Assembly (NCBI GenBank): GCA_015065585.1 | Contig: SVQC01000003.1 | Location: 1,363 to 65,362 of the forward strand | Length of the DNA stretch: 64,000 nucleotides | Reading direction: 5' to 3' | Origin: Oscillospiraceae bacterium | Lineage (GTDB): Bacteria; Bacillota; Clostridia; Oscillospirales; Acutalibacteraceae | In this document: in pieces, positions 30,861 through 42,945 of the stretch | How the letters are laid out: every line of letters starts with the position of its first letter | Position numbering within the stretch: position 1 is the stretch's first letter | Notes under the pieces: generated by a model | The model's database searches: none | Seen by the model: the letters and a program-made list of their open reading frames with translations, nothing else | Told to the model about the DNA's origin: nothing | Made by a program: the position numbers and the translations under genes

Positions 30861-30898
30861 AAAAAAGCTCAGCAGAACATTAATTCTACTGAGCTTTT
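30861..30898 (-). terminator. Intrinsic terminator ending the Leu-T-box operon
   Basis: The minus-strand hairpin AAAAGCTCAGTAGAA-ttaatg-TTCTGCTGAGCTTTT is followed by a TTTTATTTTTTT tail, right after the stop at 30902. Confidence 0.88.
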
Positions 30899-30901
30899 AA
30901 C

Positions 30902-31708
30902 TTAGATTTTAAATATTTTTTTTGCATTCAATCCTAACATTTTTTCCCGTTCTTCATGGGTAAACTCAAGAGATAAAAAGGTTTCCATTTCCCTTTTTGG
31001 AGACCACATAGGATAATCGGTACCAAAAAGAATTCTGTCCGCCCCGTATTTTTTCATAAGGGCATAAATCTCTTCCTTTTGTGTAAATCCGAAACAGGAA
31101 GAACAATCAACATAAAGATTTTTATATTCCGAAAGCTTTTCATAAGCTTCCTGCCACACCGACCAGCCTGCAAGATGAGCACCGATAAAGGTTAAATCCC
31201 TGAAAGTTTTAAGTATAGGTAAAATGCGATTTGGATTAGAATAATCGTAGCGGTAGTCACCGGTATGCATAAGCATTACAAGATTGTTTTCCTCACAAAG
31301 CGCGTATATCTCCATACATCTTTTATTATCGCACTCGAACTGCTGTATATCGGGATGAAGCTTTACACCCTTCAATCCTAGTTCTAAAAGATGTTTTACG
31401 TCGCCTTTTAAATCATCGCTATCAGGATGAAGCGTTCCAAGTCCCGTAAGCTTACCGTTATATTCGGTTACGGTCTTTGCAATAAACTCATTTATGCTTT
31501 TAACCTGATGAGGCGTTGTCGCCACCGATTGCACTATAAAATGGTCAACCCCTGCCTCGCTTCCCTGCGCTATTAAATCAGCCACCGTACCGCTACCCGC
31601 CGCAACTGTGTCATAAAATTTGTCAGTACCGGCAACAGCCTTTTGAGCGATTTTCTCAGGATAAATATGGCAATGAGAATCCACCGCATAAAATTTATTT
31701 TGTACCAT
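30902..31708 (-). CDS. Amidohydrolase_2-type metal-dependent hydrolase/decarboxylase family protein
   Basis: The DSHCHIYP N-terminal HxH motif and TIM-barrel-like pattern fit this family. The likely start is MVQNKFYAVDSHCH at 31708 after GGAGAA. The ORF track extends to 31750. Confidence 0.75.
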   Translation of the reverse strand: MVQNKFYAVDSHCHIYPEKIAQKAVAGTDKFYDTVAAGSGTVADLIAQGSEAGVDHFIVQSVATTPHQVKSINEFIAKTVTEYNGKLTGLGTLHPDSDDLKGDVKHLLELGLKGVKLHPDIQQFECDNKRCMEIYALCEENNLVMLMHTGDYRYDYSNPNRILPILKTFRDLTFIGAHLAGWSVWQEAYEKLSEYKNLYVDCSSCFGFTQKEEIYALMKKYGADRILFGTDYPMWSPKREMETFLSLEFTHEEREKMLGLNAKKIFKI

Positions 31709-31721
31709 TGTTTTCTCCGAA

Positions 31722-34223
31722 TTATTTAAGTCCCAATTTTTCGGCGGCATCTTCTCTCATTTTATATTTGAGAATTTTTCCTGCCGCATTCATAGGAAAT
31801 TTATCCATAAATTCTATATATCTCGGAACCTTATGACGTGCCATATTAGCTGAAATGTAGCCTTTAATTTCTTCCTCGGTCATAGTTTCGCCATCGTTAA
31901 GAATTATACAAGCCATAATTTCCTCGCCATATTGCTTATCAGGTACACCGATAACCTGAACGTCACTTACCTTAGGATTTGTGAATATAAATTCCTCTAT
32001 TTCCTTAGGATAAATATTTTCGCCACCTCTGATAATCATATCCTTAAGACGACCGGTAATGAGATAATTTCCGTCAGGTCTTCTGCAGGCAAGGTCCCCC
32101 GTATGAAGCCAGCCTTCTTTATCTATAGCCGCTTCAGTAGCCTTGGGCATTTTATAGTAGCCCTTCATAATATTATATCCACGGGCAACAAACTCGCCGT
32201 TGACACCATCAGGACAATCCTCTCCTGTTTCAGGGTCAACAATTTTACATTCTACGTTAGCAAAAGCGCTACCAACAGTTTCGGTTCGAACTTCTAAGGA
32301 ATCATACCAACTGCTCATAGTACATCCGGGAGAAGCTTCTGTCTGACCGTAAACAGATACAATTTCTTTCATATTCATAACTTCGGTTGCCTTTTTCATA
32401 AGGTCAGCAGGACAGTTAGAACCTGCCATTATGCCTACACGCATATATGAAAAATCGGTTTTATCAAAATCAGGATGCTGCATCATAGCAATAAACATAG
32501 TTGGTACACCGTTAAAGGCCGTAATATGCTCGTTATGAACACAAGCAAGAGAGGGCTTCGGTGAAAAATATGGCATAGGATACATTGTTGTACCGTGGGT
32601 CATAGATGCAGTCATAGACAGTACCATACCAAAGCAATGGAACATAGGCACCTGAATCATCATTCTGTCAGCGGTAGAAAGGTCCATATGGTCTCCGATA
32701 TACTTACCATTATTTACAACGTTATAATGTGTCAGCATAACACCCTTTGGAAATCCGGTAGTACCCGAAGTATACTGCATATTACAAACATCGTCTTTTT
32801 CAACAGCAGCCGCCAGTCTGTATACCTCTTCTACAGGGGTTTCAGCAGAACGTTCAACAGCCTCCTGCCATGTCATACAGCCTTTTTGTTTAAATCCCAC
32901 AGTAATAACATTACGAAGGAAAGGAAGTTTTTTGCTGTGCAAAGCCTTGCCCGATTTAATAGTTTCAAGTTCGGGGCAAAGTTTAGCAATTATTTCGCCG
33001 TAATCGGTATCCTTGCTTCCCTGAGTCATTATAAGGGTATGGGTATCCGATTGTTTAAGCAAATATTCTGCCTCGTGGATTTTATAAGCGGTGTTTACCG
33101 TAACGAGAACGGCACCGATTTTGGTAGTTGCCCAAAAAGCAATATACCACTGCGGTACATTAGAAGCCCATACGGCAACCTTAGAACCGGCTCTTACACC
33201 CATAGAAACAAGAGCTCTGGCAAAGGTATCCACGTCATCTCTGAACTGACTGTAGGTTCTTGTATAATCAAGCGTTGTATATTTAAAAGCATACTGGTCG
33301 GGAAATTCCTCAACCATTTTATCAAGCACCTGAGGAAAAGTAAGGTCGATAAGTAAATCCTTTTTCCACACAAATTTACCTGTATGACTTTTGTTATAAT
33401 AGAGGGTCGATTCTTTTTTAGAGGTGTCTCCGAACTGCTTCATAAAGTTTACAAACTGAGAGAAAATAATCTCCATATCATCAAGTTCCTCACACCATGA
33501 AGGGTCCCAAATAAGTGAGAAAAAGCCGTCGTAGTTAACACTTCTGAGGGCATTCATCATATCCTTAATAGGCAATTCACCCTCGCCTATGAGACAGTTC
33601 TCGTATGCACCGCCCACATTCTGAGCATCTCTGATATGTACGTGCTTAACATAAGCGCCAAGATTTTTAATAATCTGCTCAGCATCTTCTTTACCTACAA
33701 AAAAAGCTGAATACATATCAAGTGATGCCGCAAGACTATCGCTAGCAAAACGCTCAAGCATATCTCTTAAGAGTTCGGTATTTGAAAAAATACCCGAAGT
33801 TTCGAGAAGTAAGGTTACGTTTAATTCTTCAGCCTTATCAATTACCTTATCGATTATCGAGGCAACGTTCTTTACAGCTTCTTCTTTATCTTCAAAATCA
33901 CCTGCATGAAGACGAACAAAAGGTATTTTAAGCCTTTTAGCAATATCAGCACAAATATTAATTTCTTCTATACACTCATCAAAATCAGCCCTATCACCGA
34001 TATTACAGATAGTGTCTATACAAGGCAATGACAGTTTCTTTTCATAAAGCTTTCTTATGGTAGCGCCGGCTGTATGCTCGTGAAAAGCACCGTTTTTGTC
34101 GGTAAACAAAGGATTTTTTATATTATGAAGTTCAATTCCCTGAAACTTCAAATCTTTTGCAACATCACAAAACTCATCAAAGGATATATTGTGCCATCCT
34201 TTTGTGGAAAAGGAAAATTTCAT
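31722..34223 (-). CDS. Fusion protein: xylose-isomerase-like TIM barrel (AP_endonuc_2) domain + AMP-forming acyl-CoA ligase
   Basis: The N-terminal ~280 aa (GIELHN.., LLLETSG, HVHIRD) resemble sugar-phosphate isomerase/epimerase folds. The C-terminal ~550 aa carry YTSGTTGFPKGVMLTH, YGQTE, GWLHTGD and GRLKDMIIRGGENIYP. The ATG at 34223 lies 2 nt from the upstream stop and follows GAGGAGG. Confidence 0.85.
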   Translation of the reverse strand: MKFSFSTKGWHNISFDEFCDVAKDLKFQGIELHNIKNPLFTDKNGAFHEHTAGATIRKLYEKKLSLPCIDTICNIGDRADFDECIEEINICADIAKRLKIPFVRLHAGDFEDKEEAVKNVASIIDKVIDKAEELNVTLLLETSGIFSNTELLRDMLERFASDSLAASLDMYSAFFVGKEDAEQIIKNLGAYVKHVHIRDAQNVGGAYENCLIGEGELPIKDMMNALRSVNYDGFFSLIWDPSWCEELDDMEIIFSQFVNFMKQFGDTSKKESTLYYNKSHTGKFVWKKDLLIDLTFPQVLDKMVEEFPDQYAFKYTTLDYTRTYSQFRDDVDTFARALVSMGVRAGSKVAVWASNVPQWYIAFWATTKIGAVLVTVNTAYKIHEAEYLLKQSDTHTLIMTQGSKDTDYGEIIAKLCPELETIKSGKALHSKKLPFLRNVITVGFKQKGCMTWQEAVERSAETPVEEVYRLAAAVEKDDVCNMQYTSGTTGFPKGVMLTHYNVVNNGKYIGDHMDLSTADRMMIQVPMFHCFGMVLSMTASMTHGTTMYPMPYFSPKPSLACVHNEHITAFNGVPTMFIAMMQHPDFDKTDFSYMRVGIMAGSNCPADLMKKATEVMNMKEIVSVYGQTEASPGCTMSSWYDSLEVRTETVGSAFANVECKIVDPETGEDCPDGVNGEFVARGYNIMKGYYKMPKATEAAIDKEGWLHTGDLACRRPDGNYLITGRLKDMIIRGGENIYPKEIEEFIFTNPKVSDVQVIGVPDKQYGEEIMACIILNDGETMTEEEIKGYISANMARHKVPRYIEFMDKFPMNAAGKILKYKMREDAAEKLGLK

Positions 34224-34224
34224 A

Positions 34225-35604
34225 TTATGCCTCCTCGTAAACAATCTTGTTTACTGCACTAAGATAAGCGCGTATACTTGCGCCGATAATATCAGTAGAA
34301 ATACCGTTACCAGAATAAAGTTTACCGCCAAAACGAAGCTTAACAAGAGCGCTACCCATAGCCTCTTTACCCTCGGTAACCGATTGAATTTGGAAATCAT
34401 CAAGTTCGAAATGAGAACCGGTAACCTGCTCAATAGCAAGAAATGCCGCATCAATAGGACCGCTACCTATAGAAACACCCTGACAGATCTTTCCGTTCTT
34501 TTCCAGAGCGATTTGAGCGCTGGAAGAAATTATATTACCGGTGTTAACTACATAACTGATAAGTTTATATGTTTCAGGCACTTGTAAAGCAACGCTTGCA
34601 ATAATAGCATCCAGTTCCTTAGAGCCTACGTTCTTTTTCTCTGCAACACGCTTAAATTCATCATAAACCTTACTTTTATCTTCATCACTTAAATCATAGC
34701 CCAGTTTCAATACACTTGCCATAACGGTATTGATATCAGCGTCCTTATCAAGCTCAGCAACCTCTGTATTATCGGAAGCAGAAGCAGCAATTTTACCGAC
34801 TTTAGAGTTATCGCTAATCCATTTAATCTGCTTTATTATGCGATTAAGATTTGTATAATTAATGTTTGACTGAATAGCGAAAGAGTTGCCGCAATTTTTT
34901 ACCATTTCAACAAAAATCTCAAGAGGTACGGCACCGCTGTTCACATTAGTCTTCACTATCGAAACACCATTTCTTACAGCTAAAGTTGCAGAAGCTACAG
35001 CCATACCGTTTTTATTGTCACAAAAAACGCCGGTTTCACAAGGCACTTGCTGACAAATTTTCTTAGCAAAATCAGCAAATTCATCAGGCATCATAGTTTG
35101 GGCAGCGCTGTCATAAAGAGAAATTGCAGTAGCACCCGCTTTAACGGCAGTATTTAAAGCGCTGATAAGAAAATCTTCTTCTCCACGGGTAGCATCAATA
35201 GCGCAGAACTCAACATCTTCTACCTTTTCCTTCGCAAAAGAAATCATCTTTTCAATAAGCAAAAGCATTTTATCAGGCTTTTTATGACAAACATACTCCA
35301 TACCAACGGGAGAAACAGGAAGCTCAACTCTGATGCGCTTATTATTCGCATTAGAAAGAGCGAGAACGGCATTATTGATGCTTTCCTCACTCATACCTGC
35401 GCATACAGACAATATTCCCTTTTTAACAAAGGAAGAAATAGTCTTAACAAGCAGTATGTCGGTTCTTGCATTTTCAATAGTGCCGAGTTCAATAATGTCA
35501 ACGTTAAGATTTTCAAGCTGTCTTGCAATTTCAATTTTCTCCTTAAAACTGTAGTTTCCCTCAACGTGAGCCAGTGTAGTGTCGGCAATTTTGATTTTTC
35601 TCAT
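34225..35604 (-). CDS. 2-isopropylmalate synthase-like protein with degenerate catalytic motifs and intact LeuA-type C-terminal domain
   Basis: It has a DRE-TIM (HMGL-like) N-domain, but TTLAHVEGN stands in place of TTLRDGEQ, and VFCDNKNGMAVASATLAV in place of HxHNDxGxAxAN. The C-terminal segment (GSGPIDAAFLAIEQVTG..ALVKLRFGGKLYSGNGISTDIIGASIRAYLSAVNKI) matches the LeuA regulatory domain. Confidence 0.75.
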   Translation of the reverse strand: MRKIKIADTTLAHVEGNYSFKEKIEIARQLENLNVDIIELGTIENARTDILLVKTISSFVKKGILSVCAGMSEESINNAVLALSNANNKRIRVELPVSPVGMEYVCHKKPDKMLLLIEKMISFAKEKVEDVEFCAIDATRGEEDFLISALNTAVKAGATAISLYDSAAQTMMPDEFADFAKKICQQVPCETGVFCDNKNGMAVASATLAVRNGVSIVKTNVNSGAVPLEIFVEMVKNCGNSFAIQSNINYTNLNRIIKQIKWISDNSKVGKIAASASDNTEVAELDKDADINTVMASVLKLGYDLSDEDKSKVYDEFKRVAEKKNVGSKELDAIIASVALQVPETYKLISYVVNTGNIISSSAQIALEKNGKICQGVSIGSGPIDAAFLAIEQVTGSHFELDDFQIQSVTEGKEAMGSALVKLRFGGKLYSGNGISTDIIGASIRAYLSAVNKIVYEEA

Positions 35605-35637: not shown

Positions 35638-35905
35638 AAAAAAAGTCCCTGAAACAAAAGTTTCAGGGACGAAAATAAATTCGCGGTACCACCCTAATTA
35701 CCGTAATATACGGTCACTCGGTAAGACTCCAACAAGCCTTTAGCCATGGTAACGGGGCTAGCCGTAACCGCTTACTTTATATTTCGGCAGTTCTGCTCCG
35801 GAATGAGACTTACTTTATATCACCGTACCGACTCTCACCAACCGTCAGTTCTCTGAAAACAGCGCATATAAAGAATAATTCCTTCATCGCATTTAAAAAT
35901 TTTTA
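35638..35905 (-). promoter_or_regulatory. T-box riboswitch leader, specifier CUC (Leu)
   Basis: Minus strand shows the GA/K-turn GCGAUGAA..GGAGCA and the AG bulge AGAGA (35850-35854). The distal hairpin is ACUGAC-GGUUGGUGAGA-GUCGGU. The specifier loop ..GUAAGU-CUC-A-UUCC places the codon at 35805-35807. The T-box sequence AGGGUGGUACCGCG is at 35682-35695. The terminator GTCCCTGAAAC-ttttg-TTTCAGGGAC plus seven T is at 35638-35670. Confidence 0.88.
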
Positions 35906-35908
35906 TCC

Positions 35909-35937
35909 ATTATAACATTGACTTTTTGTTTTGTCAA
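35909..35937 (-). promoter_or_regulatory. Consensus sigma-A promoter (TTGACA-17 bp-TATAAT) of the Leu T-box operon
   Basis: Minus strand reads TTGACAaaacaaaaagtcaatgtTATAAT. The -35 box starts 15 nt after the ilvE stop. Confidence 0.75.
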
Positions 35938-40346: not shown

Positions 40347-42635
40347 TTATAACTTATTACGCTGAATTTTTCCGCTGGTAGTTTTAGGAAGACTTTCCTT
40401 GAAAACTACGATACGGGGATATTTATACGGAGCAGTTCTGTCCTTAACGTATTTTTGAATTTCCTTTTTAAGTTCTTCTGTAGGTTCAGTTCCCGAAACA
40501 AGCACGATACTTGCCTTAACGACCTGTCCTCTGACTTCATCGGGAGCAGCAGAAACACCGCACTCAAGAACATAAGGAAGTTCCATAATAACGCTTTCTA
40601 TTTCAAAAGGTCCGATACGGTATCCTGAGGACTTGATAACGTCATCAACTCTGCCCACATACCAATAGAAACCATCTTCATCGCGCCAAGCGGTATCACC
40701 GGTATGATAATAACCGTCACGCCACGTATCCTTTGTTTTTTCCTCATCACCAAAGTAACAGGAAGCAAGACCGCAAGGCAAACCATTATTTATATTAATA
40801 ACGATTTCGCCCGTCTCACCGACAGGAACATCATTACCGTCTGCATCTATAATATGAACGTCATAAATAGGAGCAGGTTTACCCATTGAACCGATTTTGT
40901 GAGGCGCACCAGTCATATTACCTATTATCATGGTACTCTCGGTCTGACCGAAGCCTTCCAGAATCTGAAGTCCAGTAATCTTTTCAAACTGACGGTAAAC
41001 CTCGGGATTAAGCGCCTCACCCGCAGTAGTCATATGCTTAACCGAAGATAAATCATACTGAGAAATATCCTGCTTTATAAGCATTCTGAGCATAGTAGGA
41101 GGTGCACAGAAAGTGGTAATGTTATGCTTAGCAAACATAGGCAGTATCTCTGCCGCATCAAAACGGTCAAAGTCATATACAAATATGCCTGCCTCACAAA
41201 GCCATTGTCCGTAAATTTTACCCCAAGTAGCCTTAGCCCAACCCGTATCGGAAATGGTAAAATGAAGACCGTCAGGATCCACACAATGCCAATACTTAGC
41301 TGTATGAAAATGTCCTAGAGGATACTTATAATTATGAGCTGCAATTTTAGGATAACCCGAAGTACCCGACGTAAAATACATAAGCATAAGGTCTTCGCCG
41401 CAAGCCGTATCTTCAGTCCGGTTATAGTGAGTACTGTAAAGGGTGTATTCCTCATCGAAGGTACGCCAGCCATCTTTAGTACCGTTAACGATTAATTTAT
41501 TAACAAGCTGTGGATTGTTTTTTGCCGCAATATCAACCTGATTAGCAGTGTCGCCGTCAGCAGTACAGATAATTGTAGTTACTCCCGCTGATTTAAAACG
41601 GTAGTCAAAATCGTGTTCAAGCAACTGATTAGTTGCAGGAATTGCAATAGCGCCAAGCTTATTAAGGGCGATAATAGAAAACCAGAACTGATAATGCCTT
41701 TTAAGCACCAGCATAACGCGGTCGCCTTTTTTTATACCTATGGATTTAAAATAGTTAGCGCACTGATTAGAAGCTTTCATTATATCCTTAAAGGTAAAAC
41801 TGCGTTCTGCACCGTCCCTTGAAATATGAAGCATCGCTCGCTTATCAGGGGTTTTTTTAGCTATGGCATCAACTACATCGAAGCCGAAATTAAATTTATC
41901 GGTATTTTTAAACTGTACAGAAATTGGTGTACCGTTTTCATTCTCGGTAACGTCAACGTATTTATGGTAAACGCGCTCTTTGGTATCCTTAACTCTTACC
42001 TTAGGCTCTAAAACAGCCTTTGCGGGAATGAGTTCTGGAATAGGCTCGCCTGTAGGATTAAGAACTATAGCGTAGAAAAGACAGTCTTTTCCGCCGATTG
42101 CTATCATACCGTGAGCAACGTCACTATCGTAATAAATACTGTCCCCAGGGCCTAATATTTCCTTATGTTCACCTACCTGAACCATAAGCTGACCCTCAAT
42201 AATTATATCAAGTTCCTGACCCGCATGAGTGGTAAGCTCAATATCCTTACCCTGAGCTTCCTCGCTATAAATATTGCGAACGTAAAGAGGCTCGGCAATA
42301 CGATTCTGGAAAGCATAAGCAAGGTTATAATATGTCATACCGTGAGCCTGAGCAATTTTTTGACCCGAGCCTGCACGGGTAACGGTATAGGATTTAAGGG
42401 TAGGACTGTAACCCTCAATAATATCGGTTACATTAACATTAAGGGCTAAAGCGCAACGATAAATAAAGGCAAAATTTAAATCGCTGTTACCGTTTTCACA
42501 CTCTATATATTCACTTGTAGTTACAGCGGTTTTTTGTGCCATTTCCTCAACAGTAAGACCTTCGATTTCGCGAAGTTCTCTGATACGCCCCGCCATTTCT
42601 TTGATTTTAAAGTCTAATCCTGTAATCTGTTCCAT
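40347..42635 (-). CDS. Fusion protein: XRE-type HTH + cupin (PuuR-like) + ACSM/MACS-type medium/short-chain acyl-CoA synthetase (paralog A)
   Basis: The first ~70 aa are an HTH_3 domain (IRELREIEGLTVEEMAQKTAVTTSEYIECENG). Residues ~110-190 form a cupin (ELDIIIEGQLMVQVGEHKEILGPGDSIYYDSDVAHGM). The rest is AMP-forming synthetase: FTSGTSGYPK, ISDTGW, GFGQTE, YHTGDTAWRDEDGFYWYVGRVDDVIKSSGYRIGPFEIES, TAPYKYPRIVVFKESLPKTTSGKIQR. Confidence 0.88.
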   Translation of the reverse strand: MEQITGLDFKIKEMAGRIRELREIEGLTVEEMAQKTAVTTSEYIECENGNSDLNFAFIYRCALALNVNVTDIIEGYSPTLKSYTVTRAGSGQKIAQAHGMTYYNLAYAFQNRIAEPLYVRNIYSEEAQGKDIELTTHAGQELDIIIEGQLMVQVGEHKEILGPGDSIYYDSDVAHGMIAIGGKDCLFYAIVLNPTGEPIPELIPAKAVLEPKVRVKDTKERVYHKYVDVTENENGTPISVQFKNTDKFNFGFDVVDAIAKKTPDKRAMLHISRDGAERSFTFKDIMKASNQCANYFKSIGIKKGDRVMLVLKRHYQFWFSIIALNKLGAIAIPATNQLLEHDFDYRFKSAGVTTIICTADGDTANQVDIAAKNNPQLVNKLIVNGTKDGWRTFDEEYTLYSTHYNRTEDTACGEDLMLMYFTSGTSGYPKIAAHNYKYPLGHFHTAKYWHCVDPDGLHFTISDTGWAKATWGKIYGQWLCEAGIFVYDFDRFDAAEILPMFAKHNITTFCAPPTMLRMLIKQDISQYDLSSVKHMTTAGEALNPEVYRQFEKITGLQILEGFGQTESTMIIGNMTGAPHKIGSMGKPAPIYDVHIIDADGNDVPVGETGEIVININNGLPCGLASCYFGDEEKTKDTWRDGYYHTGDTAWRDEDGFYWYVGRVDDVIKSSGYRIGPFEIESVIMELPYVLECGVSAAPDEVRGQVVKASIVLVSGTEPTEELKKEIQKYVKDRTAPYKYPRIVVFKESLPKTTSGKIQRNKL

Positions 42636-42662: not shown

Positions 42663-42945
42663 AATAAAAACACCCGCCCCAAAGTAATGCCTTTGAGACG
42701 AGTGGTAAATTAGATTTCACACCCGCGGTACCACTCAAATTGCGGAAATCCGCCACTCTTGGAATCTAACAATTCCTATGCATTAACGCAGCAATCACGG
42801 AGGGGTTCTACTCATATAAAATACTTTCTTCCCCTCAGCTCAGAAGCTACAAACACGAAATCCTATCCTGACGGTTTTCACCTGCCACCGTCTCTCTGAA
42901 AGAAGGTTTTTCACGTCCTCTTCGTCAAAGCCTTTACTGACTGCT
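42663..42945 (-). promoter_or_regulatory. T-box riboswitch leader, specifier read as GUA (Val)
   Basis: Minus strand shows GA motif GACGAAG..CUUCUGAGC, AG bulge AGAGAG (42892-42897) and distal hairpin ACGGU-GGCAGGUGAAA-ACCGU. The specifier loop ends ..UUU-GUA-G-CUUC, with the codon at 42848-42850. The T-box sequence UUUGAGUGGUACCGCG is at 42724-42739. The terminator ACUCGUCUCAAAG-gcauua-CUUUGGGGCGGGU plus a U-run is at 42663-42703. Confidence 0.82.

Follow-up and report, generated by a model that had tools for sequence, protein, structure and literature searches.

Bacterial 2-isopropylmalate synthase (LeuA, EC 2.3.3.13; structures 3EWB, 3RMJ, 1SR9 and 3FIG) combines a DRE-TIM barrel and the helices of subdomain II with a beta-beta-beta-alpha x2 regulatory domain, which carries GxGPxDA and GxGxSTD loops. 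In Bacillus subtilis, the ilv-leu operon is under T-box control and its LeuA is inhibited by leucine. A regulatory domain of the same type, with a dimeric effector site, is found in CimA of Leptospira interrogans (3F6G/3F6H), a catalytically active protein whose DRE-TIM site is intact and whose effector is isoleucine, and plant synthases derived from isopropylmalate synthase (IPMS), such as the MAM protein BjuMAM1.1 (6E1J), are LeuA descendants remodelled by domain loss. HisZ, of unrelated fold, is a catalytically dead HisRS paralogue that serves as the histidine-sensing regulatory subunit of the short-form ATP-phosphoribosyltransferase HisG. Here we analysed a stretch of 64,000 nucleotides from an Oscillospiraceae bacterium (Acutalibacteraceae; assembly GCA_015065585.1, contig SVQC01000003.1, positions 1,363 to 65,362), hereafter called the window. 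An open reading frame of 459 aa in the window (34225..35604, minus strand), referred to below as LeuA-like, encodes a catalytically dead paralogue of LeuA. It is followed by genes for a xylose-isomerase-like TIM::acyl-CoA ligase fusion and an amidohydrolase (Table 1).

The LeuA-like protein and its relatives, hereafter the dead family, share with bacterial LeuA the barrel, the subdomain II helices, the regulatory domain with both loops, and a common tree. They differ from it in lacking the catalytic motifs and subdomain I, in an inverted pattern of constraint, and in having an acyl-CoA ligase rather than leuBCD as the partner. The outcome is also opposite to that in the MAM proteins, which kept catalysis and dropped the regulatory domain, whereas the dead family kept the regulatory domain and dropped catalysis. 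With CimA the dead family shares the regulatory domain but not the intact catalytic site. The likeness to HisZ is one of concept: as proposed here, a paralogue from the same amino-acid system has lost catalysis, kept its ligand part and exerts end-product feedback on the first committed enzyme. However, the target here is an adenylate-forming ligase, and the complex and the allostery, experimentally established for HisZ, are predicted for the dead LeuA. The two-tier control proposed here, by a Leu T-box and a LeuA-type leucine site, would resemble that of the B. subtilis ilv-leu operon, except that the genes here include no canonical leucine enzyme and the leucine site would lie on a separate non-catalytic protein.

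In Pfam searches, HMGL-like (PF00682) matched residues 5-257 of the LeuA-like protein (E 4.4e-35, 121.8 bits against a cut-off of 29) and LeuA_dimer (PF08502) matched residues 328-454 (E 1.5e-31, 109.5 bits against 24.9). The scores against the LeuA equivalog models of NCBIfam were only about half the cut-offs, with 275.4 bits against 532 for NF002086 and 249.9 bits against 598.7 for TIGR00973. An AlphaFold2 (AF2) model of the protein, with a predicted local distance difference test (pLDDT) score of 77 and low confidence at residues 268-280, superposed in Foldseek on the IPMS barrels of 3EWB, 3RMJ and 3EEG at a root-mean-square deviation of 2.1-2.3 A over 272-274 columns. It also fitted the full-length leucine-bound LeuA of Mycobacterium tuberculosis (3FIG), regulatory domain included, and its top Foldseek match was BjuMAM1.1. 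In public records, proteins of the family are named 'hypothetical protein' or 'alpha-isopropylmalate synthase regulatory domain-containing protein'.

An initial annotation of the window, based on a hand alignment, had stated that the Arg and Asp of the LRDGEQ motif and both His ligands of the HxH motif are replaced in this protein, and that the C-terminal ~130 aa still resemble a LeuA_dimer allosteric domain, and had proposed that the protein is a pseudo-enzyme or, alternatively, an enzyme with a different chemistry. To set the register, HMMER alignments to the solved IPMS structures 3EWB, 3RMJ and 6E1J were used. DTTLAHVE-G aligned with DTTLRDGEQ of IPMS (Arg to Ala, Asp to His), and vFCDNKNGMA aligned with sHCHddlGMA (first His to Phe, second His to Asp). 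Since these alignments give the same register, the hand alignment was not shifted and the substitutions are confirmed; the PF08502 match likewise bears out the allosteric domain. The catalytic loss is, moreover, wider than had been noted. In a family alignment of 105 dead-LeuA representatives (34-58% identical to the query) with 22 true LeuAs from Clostridia genomes, the RDGEQ loop and the HxH positions are variable across the dead family, the His of ATSxxH is replaced by Gly or Gln, and both the GERAGN loop and accessory subdomain I, a segment of ~45 aa (PNKAIVGxNAFAHESGIHQHG...TPE) that bears the HESGIHQxG motif, are deleted. Of the positions conserved to at least 90% in the true LeuAs, 112 are not kept in the dead family, nearly all of them before residue 330. 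In the IPMS of M. tuberculosis, R80A and E218A abolish activity (PMC10464499), and the accessory domain of IPMS is essential to catalysis (PMC9860122). Given these published results and the loss of the catalytic elements, Claisen-condensation activity of the LeuA-like protein is very unlikely. With every catalytic element of LeuA replaced, at positions that vary family-wide, the pseudo-enzyme reading is strongly supported.

The history of the family points to maintenance of the protein. In a tree rooted on true LeuAs, the dead family is monophyletic with a support of 1.0, indicating descent from LeuA (a midpoint root fell inside the fast-evolving dead clade and was uninformative, and the tree was re-rooted). 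The family forms more than 100 clusters at 50% identity and occurs in at least several hundred GTDB species, with at least 553 confirmed stretches, and its full-length frame is intact. The mean pairwise identity within the dead family is 33% in the barrel, 31% in the linker and 58% in the regulatory domain, compared with 66%, 66% and 50%, respectively, in true LeuAs; the pattern of constraint is thus inverted relative to true LeuAs. In the regulatory domain, the consensus of the two effector loops, G380-x-G382-P383-x-D385-A386 and G432-x-G434-x-S436-T437-D438, does not differ from that of true LeuAs. The profile of this domain matches CimA 3F6G (E 1.1e-5) as its best PDB sequence match, and its loop aligns to GNGPLAA of M. 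tuberculosis LeuA. The ratio of nonsynonymous to synonymous substitution rates (dN/dS), a rough estimate because dS is saturated, is ~0.06-0.15 in all three parts of the gene, and the barrel is therefore maintained as a fold. As a separate observation, a LeuA-like protein of 497 aa (P0254) with DTTLRDGA, HCHN and GERSG is sister of the whole dead clade and may be a near-intact intermediate. No paper on the dead-LeuA family was found in a search of titles and abstracts on isopropylmalate synthase pseudoenzymes, isovalerate, reductive carboxylation, T-box and acyl-CoA synthetase.

A maintained barrel could also mean that it is an enzyme with a new, metal-independent chemistry, acting together with the ligase and the amidohydrolase toward a leucine precursor. 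The barrel is under purifying selection (dN/dS ~0.1, with dS saturated), the amidohydrolase of the operon has an intact active site, and conserved polar residues are present (E103, K109, D137, R140 and D165). More generally, barrel-mouth residues common to LeuA are still kept (D8, T10, S98, D137, R140 and D165), and the few invariant barrel residues specific to the dead family are F20, P96, E103 and K109. However, strands 1, 7 and 8 end in variable positions, the barrel is 33% identical across the family against 70-93% for the adjacent ligase, and accessory subdomain I, which caps the active site, is deleted. Because the catalytic positions vary over more than 100 family clusters, there is also no conserved substitute metal site, nor is there a conserved cysteine site family-wide. 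Two particular candidates were rejected: a substitute metal site formed by His12 and Asp196, both of which vary even among relatives of 63-77% identity, and a site for an Fe-S cluster or Zn formed by C106, C134, C195 and C238, which are invariant in close relatives and of which none is at least 85% conserved family-wide. An enzyme with new chemistry is accordingly a markedly unlikely explanation.

The next question concerns the partner. The initial annotation had placed the gene under the control of a Leu T-box and had linked its product to the downstream ligase, and both statements agree with the present data. The T-box leader in the window matches RF00230 at 132 bits and is followed by a terminator, and its specifier position reads CUC (Leu) at 35807-35805, then A. 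The LeuA-like and ligase genes are out of frame. The last LeuA-like codons (Tyr-Glu-Glu-Ala) double as the Shine-Dalgarno sequence of the ligase, GAGGAGG, and this overlap may partly explain the near-invariant LeuA-like C-terminus VYEEA. Related loci that extend past the LeuA-like stop number 96, namely 80 from GTDB (55-77% identity) and 16 distant ones (36-52%); four more end too early. The TIM::ligase fusion is the next gene after the LeuA-like stop in all 96 loci, down to 36% identity. In 89 of 95 loci the distance from stop to start is -4 to +6 nt, and in 93 of 95 the Shine-Dalgarno sequence of the ligase falls within the C-terminal codons of the LeuA-like gene. Across the loci, identity holds at 70-93% in the ligase domain but drops to as low as 36% in the LeuA-like protein and 29% in the TIM domain. 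A T-box core was detected upstream in 68 of 75 close loci, with the specifier CUC in 65 of these and CUG in one; in the seven close loci without a T-box, the LeuA-like gene directly follows an aminotransferase or oxidoreductase gene. In the distant loci, where leaders were judged by Rfam scans and direct reading of the specifier, a T-box exceeds the Rfam threshold in 6 of 16, all six reading CUC or CUG. The LeuA-like gene is therefore co-transcribed and translationally coupled with the ligase fusion, usually behind a Leu-specific T-box, and this context supports the link between the two proteins.

The distribution of the dead family was further surveyed in 300 evenly sampled Clostridia genomes. 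Dead LeuA is present in 60 of them, and a true LeuA stands beside it in only two; among the other 240 genomes, 108 carry a true LeuA (odds ratio 0.04, Fisher p 4e-11, phylogeny being ignored). The dead copies of both exceptions, G075 and G106 (loci L131, L130, L154 and L155), fall in the lineage that branches first within the dead clade. Since this lineage still has a true LeuA, the dead copy originated as a paralogue alongside it, and loss of the true gene followed. That true LeuA is nearly absent from dead-copy genomes might reflect dominant-negative heterodimers with active LeuA; the pairs of dead and true LeuA in G075 and G106 are natural material on mutual interference.

The source genome of the window (1.52 Mb, 95% complete) is in line with the general pattern. 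It contains only three HMGL-like genes, namely the dead LeuA, a homocitrate/Re-citrate-synthase-like gene and the gene of an oxaloacetate-decarboxylase alpha subunit. True leuA, leuB, leuCD and ilvD were not found in this 95% complete genome, which has one Iso_dh gene and one aconitase-family gene. As ilvD and a second gene of either the Iso_dh or the aconitase family are missing, the genome has no canonical valine and leucine pathway, and the organism appears to be without the whole canonical branched-chain amino-acid pathway. As to the other two HMGL-like genes, the homocitrate/Re-citrate-synthase-like gene (458 aa; contig C58, L002) has intact DTSLRDGQQ and HGHND motifs and adjoins a GntR regulator and an aconitase gene, and the oxaloacetate-decarboxylase alpha subunit gene (contig C6, L003) adjoins that of its membrane beta subunit.

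These distributions also bear on the notion that the gene is a decaying leuA relic, kept only for the ribosome-binding site of the ligase in its 3' end. The position of the ligase Shine-Dalgarno sequence in the last LeuA-like codons and the loss of the canonical pathway from dead-copy genomes would fit such decay. Nevertheless, hundreds of species and more than 100 clusters at 50% identity retain an intact full-length frame, dN/dS is well under 1, conservation of the regulatory domain exceeds that in true LeuAs, and the presence of a true LeuA beside the dead copy in the earliest-branching lineage indicates a paralogue and not decay after pathway loss. With an intact frame, retained constraint and a single large clade, the LeuA-like gene is no relic; this explanation is strongly disfavoured and has next to no chance of being correct.

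The ligase fusion was divided into class 1, with the LeuA-like partner, and class 2, without it. The class-2 fusion (~845 aa, the ligase being 64-77% identical) was found without dead LeuA in 62 of the 300 sampled genomes, of which 30 have a true LeuA and 32 have none, showing no association (p 0.56). In the 12 class-2 loci inspected (L156-L167, from genomes G115, G098, G152, G004, G277, G125, G011, G096, G208, G226, G037 and G256), the TIM metal tetrad E-D-H-E is intact (motifs WDxHHPYRF and SLEW), and a CUC Leu T-box over threshold precedes the class-2 gene in 6 of the 12. By comparison, the tetrad is intact in only 32 of 92 partnered sequences, that of the window being a degenerate E-D-H-I, and the TIM domain of partnered fusions has the faster rate of evolution. 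Trees of the TIM domain and of the ligase domain each group the partnered ligases in a single clade (0.989 and 0.995, respectively), and the partner was therefore recruited once. Because the ligase fusion exists without the partner, the dead LeuA is accessory and not needed for catalysis by the ligase. Within the Leu T-box regulon the ligase is thus ancestral and self-sufficient, and the dead LeuA is an accessory to it.

This accessory status fits a regulator better than an obligatory scaffold. As a non-regulatory structural subunit, the LeuA-like protein would scaffold or stabilise the ligase or bridge it to the oxidoreductase, its regulatory domain being kept for dimerisation. The tight translational coupling speaks for such a role, as do the faster evolution and degenerate metal tetrad of the partnered TIM domain, and the invariant F20, P96, E103 and K109 could form an interface. 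On the other hand, the most constrained residues are those of the two glycine-rich ligand loops, which are identical to those of leucine-inhibited LeuAs and would not be needed for dimerisation alone, and the ligase fusion functions without such a partner in 62 of 300 genomes. A purely structural role is therefore rather unlikely.

The route from isovalerate through isovaleryl-CoA and 2-oxoisocaproate to leucine has been known physiologically in rumen bacteria since the 1960s. Allison, Bryant and Doetsch, whose 1962 study is cited in PMC5911377, reportedly found that ruminococci incorporate isovalerate into leucine and that they need branched-chain volatile fatty acids. No gene assignment for this route was found in the literature searched. 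Ligases of the MbcS type, which the neighbouring ligases of the locus resemble, use isovalerate poorly (PMC10026030), and there is therefore room for a separate isovalerate enzyme.

Our favoured reading, to which we give about an even chance, is that the LeuA-like protein works as a pseudoenzyme in the manner of HisZ, making an isovalerate-activating ligase subject to leucine feedback. The protein probably senses leucine for this alternative route to leucine. The conserved motifs of its effector loops suggest that it binds leucine, and we infer that it forms a complex with the ligase and that isovalerate is the substrate of the latter. It would dimerise via its regulatory domains and bind L-leucine there as LeuA does, and the retained surface of the barrel and subdomain II would contact the ligase, probably at the degenerate TIM domain of the ligase. 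When leucine is plentiful, the LeuA-like protein would lower the activity of the ligase. In the route itself, isovaleryl-CoA would be formed from isovalerate by the ligase; its reductive carboxylation by the neighbouring 2-oxoacid:ferredoxin oxidoreductase would yield 2-oxoisocaproate, from which the branched-chain aminotransferase would make leucine. Transcription would be adjusted slowly through the T-box, and the pseudoenzyme would exert rapid feedback on the first committed step. We put somewhat less than an even chance on the further claim that LeuA allostery has been transplanted in trans onto an adenylate-forming ligase via a degenerate TIM adaptor, the pair being the feedback-controlled first step from isovalerate to leucine.

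The protein might instead be a sensor with another ligand, such as 2-oxoisocaproate, another branched-chain amino acid or an acyl-CoA, or a leucine sensor with another target, such as the oxidoreductase, the aminotransferase or some other protein. Related regulatory domains vary in ligand, and the CimA domain, the best PDB match, binds isoleucine. The surviving D8, T10, S98, D137, R140 and D165 make a residual pocket in the barrel possible, and the oxidoreductase and the aminotransferase are frequent neighbours. However, all detectable leaders read Leu codons, and the protein has lost the Arg and the metal ligands by which the 2-oxoacid is bound. As to the target, the invariant neighbour is the ligase, whereas the oxidoreductase and aminotransferase genes are adjacent in about half of the loci and absent within 10 kb in the other half. 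We consider a different ligand or target improbable, and leucine feedback on the ligase remains the preferred explanation.

Several observations nevertheless weigh against leucine feedback on an isovalerate-activating ligase. The class-2 fusion occurs without the dead LeuA in 62 of 300 genomes, and the class-2 ligases manage without LeuA-type feedback. The closest solved relatives of the ligase in the window are of the feruloyl-, malonyl-, FadD13- and 4CL-types and not short-chain ligases. No T-box over threshold was found directly upstream in 10 of the 16 distant family loci, and a search of ~100 loci and of the 120 best homologues of the ligase fusion turned up no protein in which the LeuA-like part and the ligase are naturally fused. 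The statistic for the mutual exclusivity of dead and true LeuA (Fisher p 4e-11) does not take phylogeny into account. Finally, the roles of the TIM domain and of the amidohydrolase are left unexplained by this reading.

If leucine feedback on the ligase is correct, about a fifth of the sampled Clostridia genomes, including those of many gut and rumen Acutalibacteraceae, Ruminococcaceae and Oscillospiraceae, would have swapped the textbook leucine pathway for isovalerate salvage, with the leucine sensor of the old pathway kept as a detachable regulatory protein. It would provide candidate genes and a control logic for the branched-chain volatile fatty acid requirement of ruminococci, as well as a clear bacterial case of an allosteric module reused on a different enzyme. 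It would also correct automatic metabolic reconstructions, in which the dead copy, still matching LeuA models, might be counted wrongly as LeuA or stay annotated as hypothetical, and would bear on the prediction of amino-acid cross-feeding in gut and rumen communities.

Table 1 Features of the Leu T-box unit and of the region upstream of it, in window coordinates
Feature	Coordinates	Strand	Evidence
Promoter-like TTGACA-17-TATAAT with TG extension, heading the Leu unit	35909..35937	-	12/12 consensus match
T-box leader RF00230	35662..35896	-	132.3 bits against gathering 93, E 8.7e-30
Intrinsic terminator of the T-box, 11-bp stem then T run	35645..35670	-	Sequence read
LeuA-like residues 1-255, catalytically degenerate DRE-TIM (HMGL-like) barrel	34840..35604	-	PF00682; AF2 superposition; motif losses
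LeuA-like residues 256-340, shortened linker, subdomain I deleted, subdomain II helices kept	34585..34839	-	Alignment with 22 true LeuAs; AF2
LeuA-like C-terminal LeuA_dimer regulatory part	34228..34584	-	PF08502; 3F6G profile match; 58% family identity
Gene junction ...GAG GAG GCA TAA t ATG, 1-nt gap	34225..34244	-	Sequence read
Xylose-isomerase-like TIM (~1-283)::AMP-forming acyl-CoA ligase (~291-833), 833 aa	31722..34223	-	PF01261, PF00501, PF13193
Amidohydrolase_2 (COG2159-type), 282 aa, last gene of the unit	30902..31750	-	PF04909, E 2.7e-32
Terminator closing the three-gene Leu unit, 16-bp stem then T run	30863..30898	-	Sequence
P-loop protein, 223 aa	39660..40331	-	
HTH-cupin::acyl-CoA ligase	40347..42635		
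Second T-box leader	42691..42937	-	95.6 bits

Among the other genes of the unit, the ligase fusion scored 653 bits against NF009233, below the cut-off. The amidohydrolase has a fully conserved HxH/Lys130/His162/His192/Asp245 set, by which it looks like an active hydrolase or decarboxylase, and its closest solved protein is the uncharacterised BB4693 (3IRS). It is adjacent in 66 of the 80 class-1 loci with enough downstream sequence. Replacement of a lost TIM-domain function by the amidohydrolase was ruled out, as its presence showed no association with the state of the TIM tetrad (26/29 vs 40/51).

Two further ligases adjoin the module in about half of the loci. In the window, the genes directly upstream of the unit encode the branched-chain aminotransferase, the three-subunit 2-oxoacid:ferredoxin oxidoreductase, a P-loop protein and a helix-turn-helix (HTH)-cupin::acyl-CoA ligase, the last behind another T-box. 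The specifier of this second T-box, which lies ahead of the HTH-cupin ligase gene, appears to be GUA (Val) in the cmscan alignment. The P-loop protein gene lies between the HTH-cupin ligase and oxidoreductase genes and is conserved in most related loci at 57-77% identity.

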